This document shows positions 1,671-10,805 of a stretch of 46,607 bases of DNA, piece after piece. Origin of the DNA: Armatimonadota bacterium (GTDB taxonomy: Bacteria > Armatimonadota > UBA5829 > DTLH01); contig JBBRAE010000022.1 of assembly GCA_038207085.1 (NCBI GenBank), positions 1 to 46,607 on the forward strand, written 5' to 3'. Position numbers and translations under genes: made by a program. The notes under the pieces are model-generated. The model saw only the letters and a program-made list of their open reading frames with translations, was not told the DNA's origin and searched no databases. Within the stretch, counting starts at the first letter, position 1; every line of letters begins with the position of its first letter.

Positions 1671-4118
1671 ATGAAACTAGTATCAATAGAACTGGAAAAC
1701 TTCAGACAGCACCGCTCGACCAAGATCGAGTTTTCGCCCGGCGTGACGGGGATCATCGGCAAGAATGGGTGTGGGAAGACGACCGTACTTGAGGCGATCG
1801 CTTGGGCGCTCTACGGCGGCCCGGCGGTTCGGGGAACCAACGAGACGATTCGCTGTCGCACGGCTGAAGGCAATACGCCTGCGGAGGTGACGCTCAAGTT
1901 TGATCTTGGGCCGCATTCTTATACAGTTACCCGCAGGCTGGAGTCGTCGCGCAGCTCAGCGAGTCTGTCGATCGACGGCGTCCCTGCCAAGACCGGGTTT
2001 AAGGAAGTGACCGAATCTATTACAAAGTTGCTCGGTATGGACTACCAGGCGTTCTTCACGAGCTTCTTTACAGGGCAGAAGGAAATGGAGTTCATGCGTG
2101 GGATGGATGGTCGTTCCCGCGCCGCTGCGATCAGCAAGATGCTCGGCTACGAGCGGCTGGTGCGCGCCCGGGACAAGGCGAACCAGGACAGAATCGGCCT
2201 CGCCCGCGAGATCGAGGCGCTTGAGCGGGGCCTCGGCGACCCCGAAGAGATCATCAGGCGCAAGAACGACGCCGTCGAGTCGGTCACAAACGTCGAAGCC
2301 GACGCAAAATTCGCTGAAAAACGCGCAGCAGAGAGCTCAAAAGAAGTAGAGCGACTAAAGCCGCTTAGAGAGCTTTCCGAGCAGAAATCCAAGAGATATC
2401 AGGACCTCTCAAGGCTCCTTGACGTAAGCCGCGCCGACTTCGCCCGCGCGTCCGAGCGAGTCACCGAGCTTTCCAAAGAAAAAGAAGACCTGACAGCCAA
2501 GGCGATTGAGCTAAACTCGATTGTCCCTCAAATTGACGAATACAAGAAGGCCGGCGCGGAGTATAAGCAGCTCTCCGAACTCCAAAAGCATGAGGCGGCG
2601 CGCACGGATATTCTCGCCAAGTCCGCCGCCGCAGAGGAACGCGTGAAGTCGCTTGCCGAGCAGATGGAGTCGCTCTCAGCGGCACCGGGTGAGTTTGACG
2701 AAGCCGAAAAGTCACTTTCAGAGCTCGGCATTACATTTACAGAGATCGAGTCCAAGATCGAACGCGAGCGTGAAGCGTATTCTTCTTCCAAGGCGACCGT
2801 CAAAGCCGACCTCGAACACATCGCCCGCGAGCGTGCGCAGGTTGCATCGAAGAAGGGGACGGTCGAGTCGGCGGGCAAGGACGGCAAGTGCCCGACCTGC
2901 GAGCGTCCGCTCGTAGACGAGCTTCCCAAGGTGCTCGCGAGCTTTGACGAGCAGATCGTGGCGCTCGACTCGCGCGAGTCCGAGCTTCAGAAGCTCGCCG
3001 AGTCGCTTGCACGCGAACCAGAATCGCTCGCAAAGCTTGCATCTGATCGCCTGGAGATCGAACGCCGCCGAAACGAGATGAGAACTGCGCGGGACCTCGC
3101 GTCGGCCCGTTCGTCCGAGCTGAAGCGCGCGAAGACCGAGCTTGAAGCGAAAAATAGTGAGCTTGCACGCCTGAAGACGGAGCTTGAACAGATACCGTCG
3201 GGGTTCGATCAGAAGCGCTACACCGAGCTTCGAGAAGCTGGCGACAAGCTAAGAGCGTTCTGGGACCGCGGTATCCAGCTTCGGACAGAGCTAAATCGGT
3301 CAGCCGACGTAGAAACCGATCTCACCCGCGAGGAAAAGTCGCTTGCGCAGGCCAAACTTGAGATATCGACCTCAGAAGCCGAACTAAAGCAGCTGGGGTT
3401 CAGCGAAGATGAGCACGCAAAACTCGTCGCTGTCTACGAGCAGGCGGTTGGTGCGCTGAACGCCGCGAACATAGAGGCTGAGCGCGCCAAGGGGTTGCTT
3501 CTTGCTGCCAAGGCGGCGCTAGCTTCGGCTGAGAAGGAGTTCAATTCCTACAAAGCCCGAGAGACAGAGCTTCGCGAAAAGCGAAAGGCCCGTGTAGAAC
3601 TCCAGACCATCGCTGAAGCCTTCGACAACATGCGAAACGAGCTGAACAACCGCGCCGCGCCGGAGCTTGCCGCTGCAGCAAGTGAAATCTTGACCGACCT
3701 GACCGACGGCCGCTACTCCACCCTGGAAGTGAACGAAGATTACGAAGCCGTCATCCGGGACGACGGTGAGCTGAAGCCAATCATCTCAGGCGGGGAAGAA
3801 GATGTCGTCAACCTCGCTCTGCGACTCGCAGTCTCGACGATGATCGCCGACCGCGCCGGGCAGGATCTCTCGCTTCTGATCCTCGATGAGGTCTTCGGCT
3901 CGCTCGACGACATCCGCCGGGACAACGTGGTAAACCTGCTTCAGGCGCTGAAGAACAGGTTCGAGCAGATCATAATCATCACCCACGTCGAGTCGATCCA
4001 CGATGCGCTCGACAACTGCATCTGGATTGACTACGACGAGCGCACAAAGACAAGCTCACTGCGCGCCGAAGACAGCATGGCTGGCGCGTTCGTTGAGGAC
4101 ATCGTGCTGCTTAGTTAG
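1671..4118 (+). CDS. sbcC: SbcC/Rad50 SMC-family ATPase
   Basis: Walker A GKNGCGKT, long coiled coil with central CPTC zinc hook, signature ISGGE, Walker B LILDE, ITH. Confidence 0.93.
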   Translation: MKLVSIELENFRQHRSTKIEFSPGVTGIIGKNGCGKTTVLEAIAWALYGGPAVRGTNETIRCRTAEGNTPAEVTLKFDLGPHSYTVTRRLESSRSSASLSIDGVPAKTGFKEVTESITKLLGMDYQAFFTSFFTGQKEMEFMRGMDGRSRAAAISKMLGYERLVRARDKANQDRIGLAREIEALERGLGDPEEIIRRKNDAVESVTNVEADAKFAEKRAAESSKEVERLKPLRELSEQKSKRYQDLSRLLDVSRADFARASERVTELSKEKEDLTAKAIELNSIVPQIDEYKKAGAEYKQLSELQKHEAARTDILAKSAAAEERVKSLAEQMESLSAAPGEFDEAEKSLSELGITFTEIESKIEREREAYSSSKATVKADLEHIARERAQVASKKGTVESAGKDGKCPTCERPLVDELPKVLASFDEQIVALDSRESELQKLAESLAREPESLAKLASDRLEIERRRNEMRTARDLASARSSELKRAKTELEAKNSELARLKTELEQIPSGFDQKRYTELREAGDKLRAFWDRGIQLRTELNRSADVETDLTREEKSLAQAKLEISTSEAELKQLGFSEDEHAKLVAVYEQAVGALNAANIEAERAKGLLLAAKAALASAEKEFNSYKARETELREKRKARVELQTIAEAFDNMRNELNNRAAPELAAAASEILTDLTDGRYSTLEVNEDYEAVIRDDGELKPIISGGEEDVVNLALRLAVSTMIADRAGQDLSLLILDEVFGSLDDIRRDNVVNLLQALKNRFEQIIIITHVESIHDALDNCIWIDYDERTKTSSLRAEDSMAGAFVEDIVLLS

Positions 4119-5665
4119 TCCGTCCGTATCCGCCAGGAGAGCCTTTCGTACTGCCCGGTAGTCGGGAAGAACGGTGGCGGGCAGGCGGCGAGCCTTGGGT
4201 CGTAGACATAGTTCTTGACGTAACCGGAGGTCGTCTGTCCCGTGCCCGAGTTGAACGTGCCGACCGGTCCTCTATCCTTCTGAATGATCCCTCCAAGCAG
4301 GCTGAGTGTCCCTATGGAGCGACTGTTATAGCTTTGGGCGTAGAAGCTGCCGCTCGTCGTGTTCTGTCCGCCGGAGAGTGTGACTGCGTCGAGTCGCATA
4401 TTGGTGGGACAGGCCGTTGAGATGATCGTGCTCTCCGCGACAAGTCCCATAGTCCCTGCTGCAAGGTTCGACGTGTCGCTCGCGTCTTTGGTCTTGTCCG
4501 GTTTGGTGTGGTAGTAGAGACTGCCGGTCAGGGTTATGTCCTTGCCCGCGTTGACGTCGGTTGCTATTGTGTAAGCCGACCTCTTGGTTATACCGCTCGA
4601 GTTGTACGTATTGTCCGCGATCTCGCCCTGGAGCGAAGTGATATTGCCTGTACAGTAAATAACGCCGTCGGGCAGTTTGCTGATGTTGCCGTCGCTGCCG
4701 GTGCCTTTCACCCCTGACAGTGTCGTGGAGCTTGAACCTAGCAGCACCGTAATTGTTGTAGTGTTGTTCTCCTGAGTGATGAGTATTTTCTGGTTACCGG
4801 AGGCGTCCAGTGTGAATTGAATTGCCGCGTCGCCACGGATGTATATGCCACCGTTCACGCTTGCTCTCAAGTAGACCCCGTTGGTGTTCGGGAATCCCGC
4901 CGAGGAGCCCCAAGCGGCGTTCTTTTGCGCCTCGGTAGTGCTGGGTAGCTCAATTGCAGGGACGCTGAGCTTGTAGCCTTTGCTGCCGTCCGAGAAGATC
5001 TTGCGGAAAGTCGTCTCAGTCGTCGGGCGCGACGGCGTATAGTTGATCGTGTTCCCCGCGGCAGTCACGACATCTTTGAATATCGGCGCGTTTGACCCGT
5101 TGTAGTTTATGTTGAAGTTCGAGTTGTCCTTGTTGTTGCTGTGGACGGGTCCGTCGACGGTTTCCCCGGCTCTCCACCATATCGCGCCGCCTGAGATGCT
5201 GGAAGTTTCTTTGTCGGTGAAGTAGGCGTATCTTCCGAACGATGCCTGCTGTACGACCAGTTCGACCTTCTTAGTTGCGCCTTTGAATGTGCCGGTACAG
5301 ACTATCTGGTATTTCTTGAGAAACACCGTCAAGTTGGAGGCGTCGGGGTAGATTGTTGCCTGATAAGTTCCACCATCGACCGCAACCGCTCCTCCAAACG
5401 GGTCCAACGGCGTGAGCGTCGCCGGTGGGGTAGACATATCTCGGAGCACCTGGTAGCCGTATTCCGCGCCTGACTCCGCCAAGTTGAACGCGATGGCCCT
5501 CTGCTGTTGAGAGCCGTTCAAATGGATCGCCTGGGACGTGACCATAAGCACCCCGGCCGTTGCCGCCGCCACGACGAACATCGCGACGACGACAACAAGG
5601 AGTATAGCTCCGCGATCACCGCGGCTGTGTGATAAACTATGTATATGTTGTCTTGACAAACTCAT
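4115..5665 (-). CDS. PilX-like minor pilin with large C-terminal beta-rich domain (DUF4900-like)
   Basis: RG|AILLVVVV cleavage site without Glu5, 'AFNLAESGAE' PilX-N motif, 'GPVHSN', C-terminal 'YDPRL...PPFFP'. Confidence 0.75.
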   Translation of the reverse strand: MSLSRQHIHSLSHSRGDRGAILLVVVVAMFVVAAATAGVLMVTSQAIHLNGSQQQRAIAFNLAESGAEYGYQVLRDMSTPPATLTPLDPFGGAVAVDGGTYQATIYPDASNLTVFLKKYQIVCTGTFKGATKKVELVVQQASFGRYAYFTDKETSSISGGAIWWRAGETVDGPVHSNNKDNSNFNINYNGSNAPIFKDVVTAAGNTINYTPSRPTTETTFRKIFSDGSKGYKLSVPAIELPSTTEAQKNAAWGSSAGFPNTNGVYLRASVNGGIYIRGDAAIQFTLDASGNQKILITQENNTTTITVLLGSSSTTLSGVKGTGSDGNISKLPDGVIYCTGNITSLQGEIADNTYNSSGITKRSAYTIATDVNAGKDITLTGSLYYHTKPDKTKDASDTSNLAAGTMGLVAESTIISTACPTNMRLDAVTLSGGQNTTSGSFYAQSYNSRSIGTLSLLGGIIQKDRGPVGTFNSGTGQTTSGYVKNYVYDPRLAACPPPFFPTTGQYERLSWRIRTD

Positions 5666-5705
5666 ACCAATATATCCTATAATTGCCTGCTGTCGATGGG
5701 GGTGT

Positions 5706-6245
5706 CTAGTAGTTCCTGAGATAGACTACTCGCTGGGTGAGCTCGGTCTCTTTGTCTCCGTCAGCGGATGAACCTTTGGCCGTTACCGTGATCTTGACCG
5801 ACCTTGCGGTATCCTGCTCGAAGTAGAGGCCGGTGACGTTTCGCTTGATAATTTGTGTGGTGCTGTCCTTGCTCCTCCACAGCCAAGTGCCGATCTTTCC
5901 CTGGGTGCCGGTTTTGTCTGACAGGTAGTAGCATATCTGATGCGCGGCATCGGCTATGTGCCTGTCGTAGTAACCGGTCGACGTGTTCTTTACGGGAAAC
6001 ACGATGGTTAAGTATGCACCGTTTGTTGGTATACTAACGCTCTTGGCTTCGCGCACGTCGTCGACTATTCGGTTCATAGCAATGACCGCATCAGCGTCGG
6101 TGAAGGCCTTGGTAGACGCGCCATCCGCCGTCTTGGTCGCGGTAATGAGCATTCCCATTGTGCATGCCGCGATGAACCCGAAGAGTCCGACTGATATCAT
6201 GACTTCCGTAAGCGTTATGCCCTTGTTGTTTCTGATCTTGCGCAT
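5706..6245 (-). CDS. PilW/PulJ-like prepilin (N-methylation domain)
   Basis: NKG|ITLTEVMISV type IV prepilin signal; middle gene of a triplet. Confidence 0.82.
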   Translation of the reverse strand: MRKIRNNKGITLTEVMISVGLFGFIAACTMGMLITATKTADGASTKAFTDADAVIAMNRIVDDVREAKSVSIPTNGAYLTIVFPVKNTSTGYYDRHIADAAHQICYYLSDKTGTQGKIGTWLWRSKDSTTQIIKRNVTGLYFEQDTARSVKITVTAKGSSADGDKETELTQRVVYLRNY

Positions 6246-6254
6246 AGTATTTTC

Positions 6255-6725
6255 CTAGTCGGCGTTCGATATATAGGCCGAAAGGCTCATCGAGCTGGTT
6301 TTGCTCTCATAGCCGGTAGTTTTCCAGGTGATGGTCGCTGTGACTTTTAGTACCCGCGTGCTCCATGCCACCGTATCGACGTGCAGCGAGGTCGTCGCAT
6401 TCTGCAGGTATTCGGGCACGCTGTCGACTGTTGAAAACGTGTATGGTGAGGATGTTGGGTTCAGGTCGACAATTTCCGCGTCCGAGAGTTCAGTGTAGTT
6501 CAGCCTGCCGAAACCGACTGCGCGAAGCTGGTCGATCTTGTGTTGGCATAGGCTGATGGCCTGGGCGTATTGTCCGTTCATATTGGAGGATTTGTCGGCG
6601 AGCGGCACCGCCGTCGCGAACATGATAATCAGCATGGAAAACACCGCGACTGCGATCATGACCTCAATCAGTGTAAAGCCTTTTCGTCCCGATATGCTTG
6701 ATGATCTCAATGACTTCCTCCACAC
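6255..6725 (-). CDS. PilV-like prepilin
   Basis: RKG|FTLIEVMIAV; C-terminal 'KVTATITW' strand typical of PilV/PulI. Confidence 0.85.
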   Translation of the reverse strand: MWRKSLRSSSISGRKGFTLIEVMIAVAVFSMLIIMFATAVPLADKSSNMNGQYAQAISLCQHKIDQLRAVGFGRLNYTELSDAEIVDLNPTSSPYTFSTVDSVPEYLQNATTSLHVDTVAWSTRVLKVTATITWKTTGYESKTSSMSLSAYISNAD

Positions 6726-6845
6726 AATGCACTTTCAAGTATATGTTTCCACGGCTGCAACCAGGATTACCAAGCAATAATGCTTCATTGCTGCAATTGT
6801 GAGGACATGGGGTTTCCGTCCGATGGAGGTTTGATGGGTGGGAAG

Positions 6846-7724
6846 CTACTTTTCTTCGTAGGGCTTGATGTTTCGCTTGTAGTAGATCGCCCCGATCTGT
6901 GCGCCGAGGATCGTCACAAGCGAGGAATAGTTAATCCACACCAGCAGCAGTATGATCCCCGCAAGCGAGCCGTAGACCGCGCTGTAGTTGGCGATATTGT
7001 TCACATACCAGCTGAACCCATACTTGGCGATCTCCCAGAGCAGTCCTGCAACCGTTCCCCCGGCAAAGGCAGCCCCGCGATGCACGTGGACGTTTGGCAG
7101 CACTTTGTAGATCAGTGTGAACGTGAGGATCGAGAAGCCGATCGGCAGAACATATAAGAGTATGTTCCAGACGAGTCCAAAAGCATCTGACACGCTCCTG
7201 CCGAAGACTACATAGTCCTGGGATCTCACGGCGCTTGCTGCTGCGGTTATCCCAAACGAGGCCACCAGAAGCAACCCGACTATCAAGAGCATGATAATCG
7301 CGATCAGCCTGCTTTTCACAAACCCCCGCATAGGCGCGTCCCAGGCGGTATTGATCGCCATCTCAAGGTTCACAAACGCCTGGCTTCCAGCCCAGAAAAG
7401 AGCTACAAGCCCAATCCCGGTCGCCGCGCCGCTTCCTTTGATGATCTCCTGAAGTAGTGGGACCGTTCCGTTGGCGCCTTCGGCAAGCGCCGGTGAGTAG
7501 TTGTGGACAAACGAAAGAACGGCTTGGTAGGCCTGATCCTGGGACTGCAAAATATAGCCGAACGCAGCCATCGCGAGGAGCAGGAGTGGCGCAAGTGAGA
7601 GAAACACATAAAACGACACAGCCGCAGCCATCATGCCGCTGTTGTCCTCGGCGAACTCTCGAAACAGCTCTTTTGTGAAGTCGGCGCTAGGTTCAAGCCA
7701 TTTTGGGATCTTCATAATAGCCAT
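6846..7724 (-). CDS. YihY/BrkB-family inner membrane protein
   Basis: 'AAAVSFY..LSLAPLL', 'YKVLPN', 'YSAVYGSLAGIILLLVW.NY' motifs; about 6 TM segments. Confidence 0.9.
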   Translation of the reverse strand: MAIMKIPKWLEPSADFTKELFREFAEDNSGMMAAAVSFYVFLSLAPLLLLAMAAFGYILQSQDQAYQAVLSFVHNYSPALAEGANGTVPLLQEIIKGSGAATGIGLVALFWAGSQAFVNLEMAINTAWDAPMRGFVKSRLIAIIMLLIVGLLLVASFGITAAASAVRSQDYVVFGRSVSDAFGLVWNILLYVLPIGFSILTFTLIYKVLPNVHVHRGAAFAGGTVAGLLWEIAKYGFSWYVNNIANYSAVYGSLAGIILLLVWINYSSLVTILGAQIGAIYYKRNIKPYEEK

Positions 7725-7767
7725 AGTTACCCCTGAGCTTCGATATCTACACGTTGGGCCGTACGTA

Positions 7768-7830
7768 GAAAAGGCCCCGGGGTGTCTCGACCCGGGGCCC
7801 TCTCTGGAAAGGAGAGAAAGGGAGTGTCTA
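7768..7830 (-). ncRNA. Putative small RNA copy A (CU-rich 5' tract plus terminator hairpin)
   Basis: Minus strand AGACACTCCCTTTCTCTCCTTTC...GGCCCCGGG-TCGAGACAC-CCCGGGGCC-TTTT; duplicated about 135 bp away. Ends are approximate. Confidence 0.55.
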
Positions 7831-7835
7831 ATTAC

Positions 7836-7863
7836 AAGACTGCCCGGACTCTCATTTTGTTCC
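7836..7863 (-). promoter_or_regulatory. Putative ECF-sigma promoter GGAAC-N18-GTCTT (copy A)
   Basis: Same boxes and spacing as copy B while most of the spacer differs. Confidence 0.6.
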
Positions 7864-7897
7864 GGCTTGGGGAAAGTTTTTCTTTTTTCTTGCAGAC

Positions 7898-7965
7898 AAA
7901 ACTCAAGCGGCCCCGGGGTGTCTCGACCCGGAGCCGCTTTTGAAAGGAGAGAAAGGGAGTGTCTA
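7898..7965 (-). ncRNA. Putative small RNA copy B
   Basis: Same 5' tract and same TCGAGACAC loop; stem AAGCGGCTCCGGG/CCCGGGGCCGCTT differs from copy A but still pairs. Ends are approximate. Confidence 0.55.
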
Positions 7966-7970
7966 AATAT

Positions 7971-7998
7971 AAGACTGTTCAGGCTACCGAAATGTTCC
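7971..7998 (-). promoter_or_regulatory. Putative ECF-sigma promoter GGAAC-N18-GTCTT (copy B)
   Basis: Plus strand AAGAC at 7971-7975 and GTTCC at 7994-7998, 18-nt spacer. Confidence 0.6.
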
Positions 7999-8128
7999 AG
8001 CAGTATATAAGAAAATATTTCCGGTAATTACGCCTGTTTCGTGTTACCCGGTAACGATGCCTGCACCGATTGGTTGGTTCCTAATAGAATAACAGCCATG
8101 GATCGCAATAGCGAACGGAGGATCATCC

Positions 8129-8569
8129 ATGCGTAATCGACGCGGCACAACTCTTATAGATGTTATGGTCGGGCTCGTGCTGCTCACAGTTGCCGGGCTT
8201 GTTTACTCTGCAACGTTCCCCGCCGGGTTCAGGGCGGTGCGGCAGGGTGGTGAGAGCAAGAAGGCGGTAGCTATAGCTCAGGCGAAGATTGAACAGGTCA
8301 AGCTGCTAGGCTATGAAAATTTGAATTATGAAACAATGCAGAGCCAGGGCGTCATAGACTCAGCGTCTGCAACATCTCCCTTTGTGTTCACGTCAGTGGA
8401 GTCTTTGACCACTCAGCTTCCGAACCCCACTGGGACGCTTGCGATTTCCGACTACTCAGTTACCACCAAGCTTGTCGTCGTCACCGTAAACTGGCGAAGC
8501 GACAGCATAACCAGATCGGTTACACTGCGCACGCTGGTTGCCGACAAGAGCACATACAGGGGGTCATGA
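8129..8569 (+). CDS. PilV-like prepilin (second triplet)
   Basis: RRG|TTLIDVMVGL (Asp at +5); GGAGG RBS; visibly paralogous to 6255-6725 (KI.Q....G...LNY, SP..F..V.S....L.N.T, V.VTV.W). Confidence 0.82.
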   Translation: MRNRRGTTLIDVMVGLVLLTVAGLVYSATFPAGFRAVRQGGESKKAVAIAQAKIEQVKLLGYENLNYETMQSQGVIDSASATSPFVFTSVESLTTQLPNPTGTLAISDYSVTTKLVVVTVNWRSDSITRSVTLRTLVADKSTYRGS

Positions 8570-9117
8570 ATATGATCAAGCCCAGTTTCTATAAGAACAG
8601 ACGCGGCTTCACAGTGATCGAGTTGTCGGTGACCATGGTCACGATGGCAATGATCGTTGCGACGCTTGGAGTTATGATGTGTAACGCGCTCAGGGGCTGG
8701 TCCTCGGGTGTAAGCCACGTTGGCGCTGACGCTCGGGTATCGACCGCCGCACACAAGCTCTGGCAGGAGGTGCGGCTCGGCAAGTCTGCTTATACCGTCA
8801 AGGGCACGAGCCTCGGCGACCAACTCTATGTCGTTGTCCCGCCGCTTGTTACGGACGTCAACCACGAAACCTTCTACGACCTGTCCGCAGCCGGGACGAC
8901 ACACCGTTACTATGTAAGCAACGACGTGTTGTATAGGCAGATAGGCACAGGCACAGCCGAGGTATTCGCGCGCGGTATCTCCAGACTCGAAGTCTTTGGC
9001 GTGTCCGGCCCGATGGTTATGGTCCGGCTACTTCGGAGTGTGGATAGAGACGGCGCGGTGACGACCAACGAAGACTACGTGCAGCAGAAGATTCTCATGA
9101 GGAATAGTTTAAACTGA
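8566..9117 (+). CDS. PilW/PulJ-like prepilin (second triplet)
   Basis: RRG|FTVIELSVTM; ATGA overlap with the upstream gene; ends '..MRN' like the 'YLRNY' end of 5706-6245. Confidence 0.8.
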   Translation: MNMIKPSFYKNRRGFTVIELSVTMVTMAMIVATLGVMMCNALRGWSSGVSHVGADARVSTAAHKLWQEVRLGKSAYTVKGTSLGDQLYVVVPPLVTDVNHETFYDLSAAGTTHRYYVSNDVLYRQIGTGTAEVFARGISRLEVFGVSGPMVMVRLLRSVDRDGAVTTNEDYVQQKILMRNSLN

Positions 9118-10805
9118 TGAAACGGGAAGGGTTGCCTATGTTTACCAAGAGGATAATAACCAGTCGGCGCGGATCAGCGGTGATCATCGGCATGTTTGCG
9201 CTTATGATTCTGCTGGCCTTTGGTGTCTCGTTTGTCTCTGTTGCCGTGTCGAACCTGTACAGCGCCAAGCGTGACGATCTCAGCTCAAGGGCGCTTGCAA
9301 TCGCCGAGGCGGGTATCGAGCGCGGTATCTCCTTTGTGCGTGTCGACGGAAACTGGCACACGACCCACCCGTCGAGCAACCCCGATGACCACACCGGCGA
9401 CACCTGGTTCAACGAAACACTCGCGACAGGCGAGTCGTTCAGGATCTGTGTCAGAACCGCCGCAGGAGGCGACGCAGACAGGCTGGTCATTACAAGTGTT
9501 TCGACAGTTATCCGAGGTGACGACGTCGCCTCCCGGACTCTCCGGGTAGTAGTCGAGCGCAAGGCTGAGAACGTCAACTGCTGGAACAACGTCATCTTCG
9601 CCGGAGTCGGTCAGGCTGGTCACAGCATCAACGGAAACGTTGTTATGCGGGGTTCGATACACCTGCTCGGCGATGGTGAGCCGTTCACCGACATCGACCA
9701 CGACGGCAAGTGGGACAACGACGAGGCCTACACCGACAGCAACCATAACGGCGTCTACAACCTCGGTGAGCCCTATACCGACACAGACCACGATGGCCAC
9801 CGCGATTCCCGCGAGCCATTCACCGATCTAAACGGCAACGGTTCGCGCGATCCGGCTCTGACCGTTACGGACCTTGCAGAAGAGATGTCAGGAACCGCCG
9901 ACGTAGGTAACAACTATAGCGGTATGTCCTCAACTCTCACCAACAAGGTGCCGGCCATCCCGACTACGACTTTCAATGGTGAGACGGTAGGAACTCTGGA
10001 CGCCAAGCTCAGGGTCAAACACGGACAGGTGGGAATCTCGGGCGCGGCTACGGTCGGCTCGGGGAACACAGCGGGCAACTCCATCAAGGAAACTATGGAC
10101 GGCTGCTACGTAACCGATGGTTACACCGGCAACAAAGGCGCATCAAGTGTCTATTCTGACAACGGCTCCAACGCCGACTACGATCTCGGCGATGGGCTTG
10201 TGACCTTTCCGTCGCTTGCCGATCCCTGTCCTCCCTATGGTACATATCAGGACTACCTGCAGAGCACGTCTTATGTAAGAAACGGAGCCTTGACGCTCGG
10301 CACGAGCACCTCATACGTGTTTGGGGATGCAAACGGCGGTCTAGTATATAACAAAGACACAAAGACCCTTACAGTGTATGGGAAGGTCTACGTCAGCGGT
10401 GACATAACGCTCGATACAAGCATCAAGTATGTGGGCGCGGGCACGTTGATCTCGACCGGAGACATAAACATCAACGGCAACCTGCTTCCCAATACCGGGT
10501 TCCCACTTACGGACAGGCTGGGTCTGATCGCTGCACATAACATGACCGTAGGCGGTTCGTCTCAGCTCACTGTCGCGGCGGCGTGTTACGCTCAGTATCA
10601 GATAAACATACCGAAGCAGACGGAATTTGCCGGGACGTGCGTCTCAAGTTACTTCAGTGTGAAAAACGTTCCGCATCTCTATCAGGTGCCCGCGCTGAAG
10701 GACAACCTTCCACCCGGCATGCCCGGGTCCGACCCGATATGGGTCATAGACGTAAGCGTTCTCAGCTGGCAGGACGTGTCCGGCTCCTCGTCACAGACCC
10801 ACTAG
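9117..10805 (+). CDS. PilX-like minor pilin with four DxDxDG-type Ca-binding repeats and beta-rich C-domain
   Basis: RRG|SAVIIGMF, 'ALAIAEAGIE' PilX-N motif; repeats EPFTDIDHDG, EAYTDSNHNG, EPYTDTDHDG, EPFTDLNGNG. Confidence 0.75.
   Translation: MKREGLPMFTKRIITSRRGSAVIIGMFALMILLAFGVSFVSVAVSNLYSAKRDDLSSRALAIAEAGIERGISFVRVDGNWHTTHPSSNPDDHTGDTWFNETLATGESFRICVRTAAGGDADRLVITSVSTVIRGDDVASRTLRVVVERKAENVNCWNNVIFAGVGQAGHSINGNVVMRGSIHLLGDGEPFTDIDHDGKWDNDEAYTDSNHNGVYNLGEPYTDTDHDGHRDSREPFTDLNGNGSRDPALTVTDLAEEMSGTADVGNNYSGMSSTLTNKVPAIPTTTFNGETVGTLDAKLRVKHGQVGISGAATVGSGNTAGNSIKETMDGCYVTDGYTGNKGASSVYSDNGSNADYDLGDGLVTFPSLADPCPPYGTYQDYLQSTSYVRNGALTLGTSTSYVFGDANGGLVYNKDTKTLTVYGKVYVSGDITLDTSIKYVGAGTLISTGDININGNLLPNTGFPLTDRLGLIAAHNMTVGGSSQLTVAAACYAQYQINIPKQTEFAGTCVSSYFSVKNVPHLYQVPALKDNLPPGMPGSDPIWVIDVSVLSWQDVSGSSSQTH

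Follow-up and report, generated by a model that had tools for sequence, protein, structure and literature searches.

MicA, RybB and MicL are sigmaE-dependent small RNAs (sRNAs) of enterobacteria (PMC4102768). In Listeria monocytogenes, the multicopy sRNAs LhrC1-5 are linked to envelope stress and block translation using CU-rich sites (PMC4132741). Sibling sRNAs can also be arranged in tandem; for example, NmsRA and NmsRB of Neisseria meningitidis, which carry fully conserved UC-rich stretches directed against Shine-Dalgarno (SD) sequences (PMC5362039), and PrrF1/PrrF2 of Pseudomonas aeruginosa and OmrA/OmrB, which are described as lineage-specific tandem siblings (PMC4211561). In the open literature on Armatimonadota, as far as its text is covered by searches with small RNA, sRNA, Hfq or the core sequence given below, no description of the family presented here was found. 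The window, which is the whole stretch of 46,607 nucleotides that was analysed, is contig C22 of an Armatimonadota genome of 3.35 Mb (G000), and positions given without a contig name refer to it. It contains two tandem units that probably belong to a new family of trans-acting anti-SD sRNAs of about 65 nt, in which an ECF sigma factor would drive transcription, the core would block SD regions with the aid of Hfq, and the gene would have been duplicated locally.

Anatomy of the tandem units

Units a and b lie on the minus strand at 7998-7765 with a repeat spacing of 135 nt, and in each of them GGAAC, an 18-nt spacer and GTCTT are followed, six bases later, by a 23-nt segment that is the same in both units and then by a hairpin. 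An earlier sequence-only reading had described two minus-strand units of about 135 bp, each with GGAAC-N18-GTCTT, and this is confirmed at 7998-7971 and 7863-7836. In unit a, the ECF-type promoter motif (7971..7998) has its -35 box GGAAC at 7998-7994 and its -10 box GTCTT at 7975-7971; in unit b (7836..7863), these boxes are found at 7863-7859 and 7840-7836. The two matches in the window compare with 0.10 expected, and two matches were reached in 1 of 100 shuffles. The spacers of the two motifs match at just 8 of 18 positions.

The predicted sRNA of unit a, of about 65 nt, spans 7900..7964; its start near 7964 is set by the distance from the -10 box and its end is approximate. The predicted sRNA of unit b, also of about 65 nt, spans 7765..7829, with a presumed start near 7829. 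The 23-nt segment has the same letters at 7964-7942 and 7829-7807 and includes the 17-nt core, UCCCUUUCUCUCCUUUC, which is located at 7942..7958 in unit a and 7807..7823 in unit b. Over a 75-nt repeat, the identity between the units is 75%. In the predicted folds (MFE -30.4 and -29.6 kcal/mol, z -3.6 and -2.3, for a and b, respectively), the first 23 nt of both RNAs are mostly unpaired, the core being mostly single-stranded in unit a and single-stranded in unit b. The core is followed by a GC-rich hairpin of 13 bp in unit a (7905..7939) and a hairpin of 15 bp in unit b (7767..7805), both of which are likely terminators. In RybB, a 5' pairing region is likewise combined with a terminator.

Both hairpins enclose an identical 9-nt loop (7926-7918 and 7790-7782), which repeats the AGACAC of the 5' end. 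The loop had been called invariant, and it is the same in both copies of G000 but not conserved among homologues. The earlier statement that AGACAC(C/T)CCC occurs twice per unit holds for the 5' end; the loop copy, AGACAC-CCC, is one base shorter, and AGACAC[CT]CCC fits the 5' copies only. The loop identity despite the divergent spacers possibly reflects a lineage-specific second site or gene conversion. The U-rich tails that had been noted are present after both hairpins but weak, and they are absent from several copies in the sister family. A simple terminator scan of the window, with a loop limit of 8 nt, flagged neither hairpin.

Conservation, gene context and the opposite strand

BLAST, a two-copy profile and motif scans found only two full copies in the 3.35-Mb genome. 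Two similar palindromic hairpins 135 bp apart could be taken as a dispersed repeat (REP or MITE) or a chance terminator duplication without function, and the sequence-only reading had named a high-copy repeat as the outcome that would speak against it. This outcome did not occur: with two copies and none elsewhere in the genome, the units are neither numerous nor dispersed, as a REP or MITE would be. In relatives there is a single copy, in which the core and promoter are conserved and the changes in the stem are compensatory, and the probability left for such a repeat is negligible.

In the same family, DNA searches found single homologues in four of five genomes; in the fifth, the contig starts within a hairpin just upstream of yihY. 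The exact 17-mer is present in 20 of 401 genomes of the phylum, of which 18 are inside the order (G000, the four family members and 13 of the 28 genomes of a sister family); the two matches outside the order are isolated, without promoter or hairpin. The 23-mer is also present in five metagenome stretches, three of them distinct. A covariance model (R1) was trained on 20 copies including units a and b, which score 61.1 and 63.2 bits as members of the training set. At a threshold of at least 60 bits, this search of relatives, which had been proposed earlier, gave 21 hits in 20 of the 36 genomes of the order, with weaker hits besides, and added two genomes (G018 and G019) missed by the exact pattern. 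A GTDB-wide pattern scan gave 24 stretches, of which 15 score 61-84 bits and are largely training copies; nine of these 15 are labelled Armatimonadota and six carry no phylum label. The matches outside the lineage (nine from GTDB, two from the phylum sample and one viral contig) reach 14-27 bits, and their resemblance to the core seems fortuitous. Among the genomes searched, the family is limited to one order of Armatimonadota. The idea of a tandem sibling family thus stands for the family, which is conserved in the order, but not for the tandem arrangement, since among the 20 genomes with strong copies the pair is found in G000 alone. The two units are likely to have arisen by local duplication of one conserved non-coding gene.

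No catalogued RNA family corresponds to these units, as had been suspected. A scan of 6500-9500 against Rfam 15 with E-values up to 10 gave just two hits, both to miRNA models and well short of the gathering scores, and a scan of 14 homologue loci and the window gave one tRNA elsewhere and no match to an sRNA family. A conserved stretch beside the sister-family copies, also without Rfam match, was taken for coding sequence at the 3' end of a tetratricopeptide repeat (TPR) gene in convergent orientation and set aside. One sister-family locus (L092; G025:C82:8768-9502) contains three related units close together, one of which has GGAAC-N19-GTC. Two weaker model hits (L097 and L091; G034:C49 and G031:C45) have a common upstream motif, GTGACCTGCCAGCAC-CCGCAGT, which is perhaps the site of another regulator.

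The core is invariant in 20 of 20 aligned copies, which were themselves selected by the core, and the two copies added by the model have one core change each. Stem pairing is kept in 99% of 200 cells, compared with 43-49% in slid controls, and both sides have changed in 5 of 10 pairs; the structure was defined on the same alignment that was used for counting, and the sequences are related. The earlier remark that the stems differ and still pair is borne out for the pairing, but the difference between units a and b is small (96% identity over 27 nt), with changes mainly at the base. Another outcome that had been set against the reading was homologues without promoter boxes or stem covariation; all 24 copies carry a stress-type motif, with the ECF-type boxes in 13, and half of the stem pairs are changed on both sides. 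The 3' eight bases of the core are equal to the 3' tail of the 16S rRNA, which in one of the order's genomes ends in GGAUCACCUCCUUUCU. The complementary SD sequence of the AAAGGAG type, GAAAGGAG, occurs as a 7-nt match before 125 of 2783 genes in G000, as predicted with a simple in-house gene predictor.

On the plus strand, the purine tract could instead act as the ribosome-binding site of a small peptide, such as a type I toxin, with the minus-strand RNA as its antisense. GTG, ATG or TTG follows AAAGGAG after 8-10 nt in 16 of 22 copies, as this would need; in the other six there is none, and the peptides range from 5 to about 60 amino acids with nothing in common beyond residues forced by the promoter boxes. 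A conserved small hydrophobic open reading frame on the opposite strand, as in type I toxin-antitoxin systems, is thus lacking, and it is the CU-rich strand that carries the promoter motifs and the U-tails. The missing start codons and unrelated peptides make this reading fail, and it is given a very small chance.

The closest gene downstream is yihY, encoding a BrkB-family membrane protein (6846..7724, minus strand; PF03631, E 8e-57), which lies outside the predicted RNAs. A SigB-like motif, GTGT-N16-GGGTA (7728..7752, minus strand), is found just before it with one mismatch to GTTT-N16-GGGTA and is likely yihY's own promoter; G002, G005 and one metagenome locus have GTTA-N16-GGGTA at the equivalent position. 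On the other side, a divergent prepilin-like cassette of three genes (8129..10805, plus strand) is syntenic in G002, G003, G005 and the metagenome loci, where the order is sbcC, yihY, unit and prepilin cassette. A second prepilin-like cassette (4115..6725, minus strand) is inserted between sbcC and yihY in G000 only; in relatives, yihY abuts sbcC. In G001, the unit is flanked by a convergent sbcC and a hydrolase-like gene, with neither yihY nor pilin genes close to it, and in the sister family it faces the convergent TPR gene in many loci and unrelated genes in others. The divergent cassette is absent from G001 and from the sister-family loci examined. The unit persists while its gene context changes and is independent of its neighbours.

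These neighbours bear on the view that the units are a cis element, that is, a stress promoter with a leader or attenuator that serves yihY, or an element that regulates the pilin cassettes on either side. It is favoured by yihY being downstream in the same direction in G000, G002, G003, G005, G004 (where the contig end cuts) and three distinct metagenome loci, and by terminators that look leaky, so that read-through into yihY is possible. Against it stand G001, where the next gene is the convergent sbcC, the convergent gene facing the unit in many sister-family loci, the SigB-like motif that yihY has of its own in several loci, and poor pairing: among 2817 genes ranked by their pairing to the 23-nt segment, yihY is at position 2480 and the pilin-cassette genes are at 1361-2722. 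The earlier links to yihY, which is missing in G001 and the sister-family loci examined, and to the pilin operons as targets are unsupported because of the changing neighbours and the poor ranks, and a cis element is improbable.

Promoter motifs, sigma factors and related units

Each of the 24 copies examined has a stress-type motif, whose distance from the core is nearly fixed. GGAAC-N18-GTC only is found in 10 copies, GTTT-N16-GGRTA only in 11 and both in three; the two motifs are therefore present in 13 and 14 copies, with distances to the core of 13-16 and 19-27 nt, respectively. The first has the -35 element GGAAC in common with the E. coli sigmaE element GGAACTT (PMC3326320), and the second resembles the Bacillus subtilis SigB consensus GTTTAA-N15(+/-2)-GGGTAT (PMC9847131). 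The identical boxes and spacing and the divergent spacers noted in the two units extend to the family, as the spacer is N18 in 13 of 13 ECF-type copies, with conserved boxes and a free spacer sequence. An ECF promoter with conserved -35 and -10 boxes and fixed spacing, as in sigmaE-type sRNAs, is therefore seen in 13 of 24 copies, and the earlier description of an ECF-driven family has to be narrowed, since the other 11 have the SigB-type motif only. Judging from these motifs, the sister-family RNA is rewired to a SigB-type promoter, and three genomes (G015, G021 and G032) carry both motifs.

The genome-wide scan that had been suggested for the promoter motif also gave a clear preference for its spacing. 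In intergenic regions of G000, GGAAC-N-GTC[TA] occurs 30 times at N18, 14 times at N17 and 12 times at N19, compared with 4-9 times at spacings of 13-16 and 20-24. GTTT-N-GGGTA occurs 41 times at N16 and 30 times at N17, compared with 1-10 times at other spacings. By eye, these 71 SigB-type sites precede general-stress-like genes (KGG, BON, ferritin-like and STAS), and many genes behind ECF N18 motifs start with signal-peptide-like ends.

G000 has an RsbV-RsbW-SigB operon along with six ECF-type sigma factors, four of which were scanned. Hfq is also encoded; within the class, 51 of 53 genomes have it. A SigW/RpoE-like ECF sigma factor (C12:54476-55207) is present in 35 of the order's 36 genomes and is, by distribution only, the best candidate to read the promoter of the units; no N18-type self-promoter is found directly before its gene. 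The most RpoE-like ECF sigma factor (L257-L282) was set aside as the driver because its self-promoter spacing is N17 (GGAAC-N17-GTC in 22 of 26 orthologues, N18 in none); it was also not found in G001 with the query used. The C15 ECF sigma factor is patchy, with a clear orthologue in one of five genomes tested, and was set aside as well. In G019 and G035, the gene of the most RpoE-like ECF sigma factor and that of the sRNA are about 7 kb apart. Another ECF gene of G000 (C49:15988, minus strand) has a likely self-promoter TGTAAC-N18-GTCTT, which is a third ECF motif type.

Further units with a similar core are present in this genome. A scan of G000 for an intergenic CU-rich tract followed by a hairpin gave 15 hits, including units a and b, of which five others are doubtful. 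The unit at C9:69544 (C9:69487-69610, plus strand) has the same ECF N18 motif. Those at C30:30265 (C30:30200-30330, plus strand) and C20:21305 (C20:21370-21250, minus strand) have GGGAACT-N16-CGTA, which matches a motif upstream of the C5 ECF gene. A sigma70-like motif is found at C9:82863 (C9:82810-82930, plus strand) and a degenerate sigma54-like motif at C23:29935 (C23:29990-29890, minus strand). The units at C31:18684 (C31:18910-18620, minus strand) and C3:81270 (plus strand) consist of a CU-rich tract and a hairpin, and that at C13:65429 (plus strand) lies just after a gene end. The cores of these further units are UUCUCCUUUC-like (YUYUCUCCUUUC-like). In addition, four CU-rich units follow consensus sigma54 sites (C12:60372 and C12:60590, plus strand; C26:4386, plus strand; C28:15714, minus strand), the C12 pair being in tandem. 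For each of the C30, C20 and C9:82863 units, three relatives have a clear orthologue behind the same type of promoter. When 56 permutations are ranked by how often a strong hairpin follows them, TCTCCTTT comes first (11 of 25 sites, compared with 14% for the others). In an 8-mer enrichment upstream of 524 terminator-like hairpins, the core was outside the top 15, and CTCCTTT was found in six of the 524.

It is conceivable, though doubtful, that the pair belongs, as one branch, to a superfamily of RNAs that mimic the 16S tail and are indexed by sigma factor, with a dozen or more per genome and a UCUCCUUUC-like core. Each would have a different promoter class: two ECF types, SigB, sigma54, sigma70 and, in one case, a 3' UTR. 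If so, every stress programme would launch its own SD-masking RNA, and either the flanking bases would tune specificity or AAAGGAG-led translation would be broadly damped. On this reading, a switch from ECF to SigB, or the reverse, would have passed through dual-promoter intermediates that are still extant.

Predicted action and comparison with known systems

For the preferred reading, that of trans-acting anti-SD sRNAs, the following steps are proposed. Stress would free an ECF sigma factor, which would transcribe both units from about 7964 and about 7829 to the hairpins, where the RNAs of about 65 nt would terminate. The exposed CU-rich core would then pair with the SD regions of mRNAs, likely with the help of Hfq, and block their translation initiation. 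Duplication would raise the dosage, and a read-through transcript of both units may form. We infer transcription, hairpin termination, use of Hfq, sigma identity and target repression from the features described above.

Target predictions did not single out a gene set. The ranking of 2817 genes in G000 is smooth, with no outlier family, and the longest continuous predicted helices, of 13 bp, occur in two of these genes. Among 891 orthologue pairs of G000 and G003 (covering 2.11 Mb of the approximately 3.1 Mb of the latter), nine are in the top 5% of both genomes, compared with 8.4 +/- 2.1 in 60 controls with a shuffled 5' part. The predicted pairing of genes behind SigB-type motifs is 1.66 kcal/mol stronger than that of other genes; shuffled seeds give 1.60 +/- 0.33, and the difference therefore reflects strong SD sequences and not targeting. 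A crude estimate of the signal-peptide share gave 20-25% for the top predicted targets and 19% overall. For anti-SD seeds, weak target prediction is expected. Conserved pairing that reaches 5' of CUCCUUUC across genomes would point to targets.

The same results can also be read differently: the RNA may be made, with its core serving as a protein-binding site (for Hfq, ribosomal protein S1 or a cold-shock/KH-type protein) that titrates the protein or acts as a broad decoy, without repression of a specific mRNA. A 17-nt core that is near-invariant over two families, yet has no conserved target, would fit this, as would the approximately ten other units of G000 that have a YUYUCUCCUUUC-like core and other promoters. 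However, the core matches the 16S tail and complements the AAAGGAG sequence before the 125 genes counted above, and weak target prediction is to be expected for such seeds. In the described cases, known CU-rich siblings also act through pairing (PMC4132741, PMC5362039). This alternative is unlikely, but it is the one with the largest share among those considered here, and sRNAs that act on SD regions are preferred.

Compared with the described systems, the best reading is that of a new RNA family with a known mode of action, in the style of MicA/RybB, LhrC and NmsR, as far as its sequence allows such a comparison. The units appear to have what characterizes Hfq-associated sRNAs: a promoter motif of their own, an exposed and conserved seed, a terminal hairpin and independence of neighbours. 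They also have what characterizes CU-rich anti-SD siblings, namely an SD-complementary tract that is single-stranded in the predicted fold, in two copies plus related units. As a candidate family of regulatory RNAs it is well supported, and it comes from a phylum for which the literature searches found none described. Its start sites, sigma class and seed are predicted exactly, so a direct test is possible. Two aspects go beyond a routine sRNA: the visible ECF/SigB promoter swap with dual-promoter intermediates, and the genome-wide set of RNAs that reuse one anti-SD core under different sigma factors, which bears on how generic anti-SD seeds gain specificity.

The ECF promoter motif is common to these units and to MicA, RybB and MicL, which are described as short Hfq-type RNAs forming the repressive arm of a stress regulon (PMC4102768). 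The units differ from them in having no sequence or Rfam match, a generic anti-SD core, N18 after GGAAC and, in about half of the homologues, a SigB-type promoter motif. With LhrC1-5, they share multiple copies, a link to stress (predicted here from the promoter motifs) and CU-rich sequence; LhrC, as described, depends on the LisRK two-component system and has three redundant CU-rich sites (PMC4132741), whereas here one 17-nt tract and sigma-factor motifs are found, with no Rfam match. NmsRA and NmsRB are likewise tandem siblings with a conserved anti-SD tract and are reported with three stem-loops, two anti-SD sites and TCA-cycle mRNA targets (PMC5362039); in contrast, one hairpin and stress-sigma promoter motifs are found here, and the tandem arrangement occurs in 1 of 20 genomes. 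PrrF1/PrrF2 and OmrA/OmrB have other regulators, and no similarity to them was detected by the Rfam scans. PrrH, which arises from read-through of the first PrrF terminator (PMC4211561), provides a precedent for a possible two-unit transcript at this locus.
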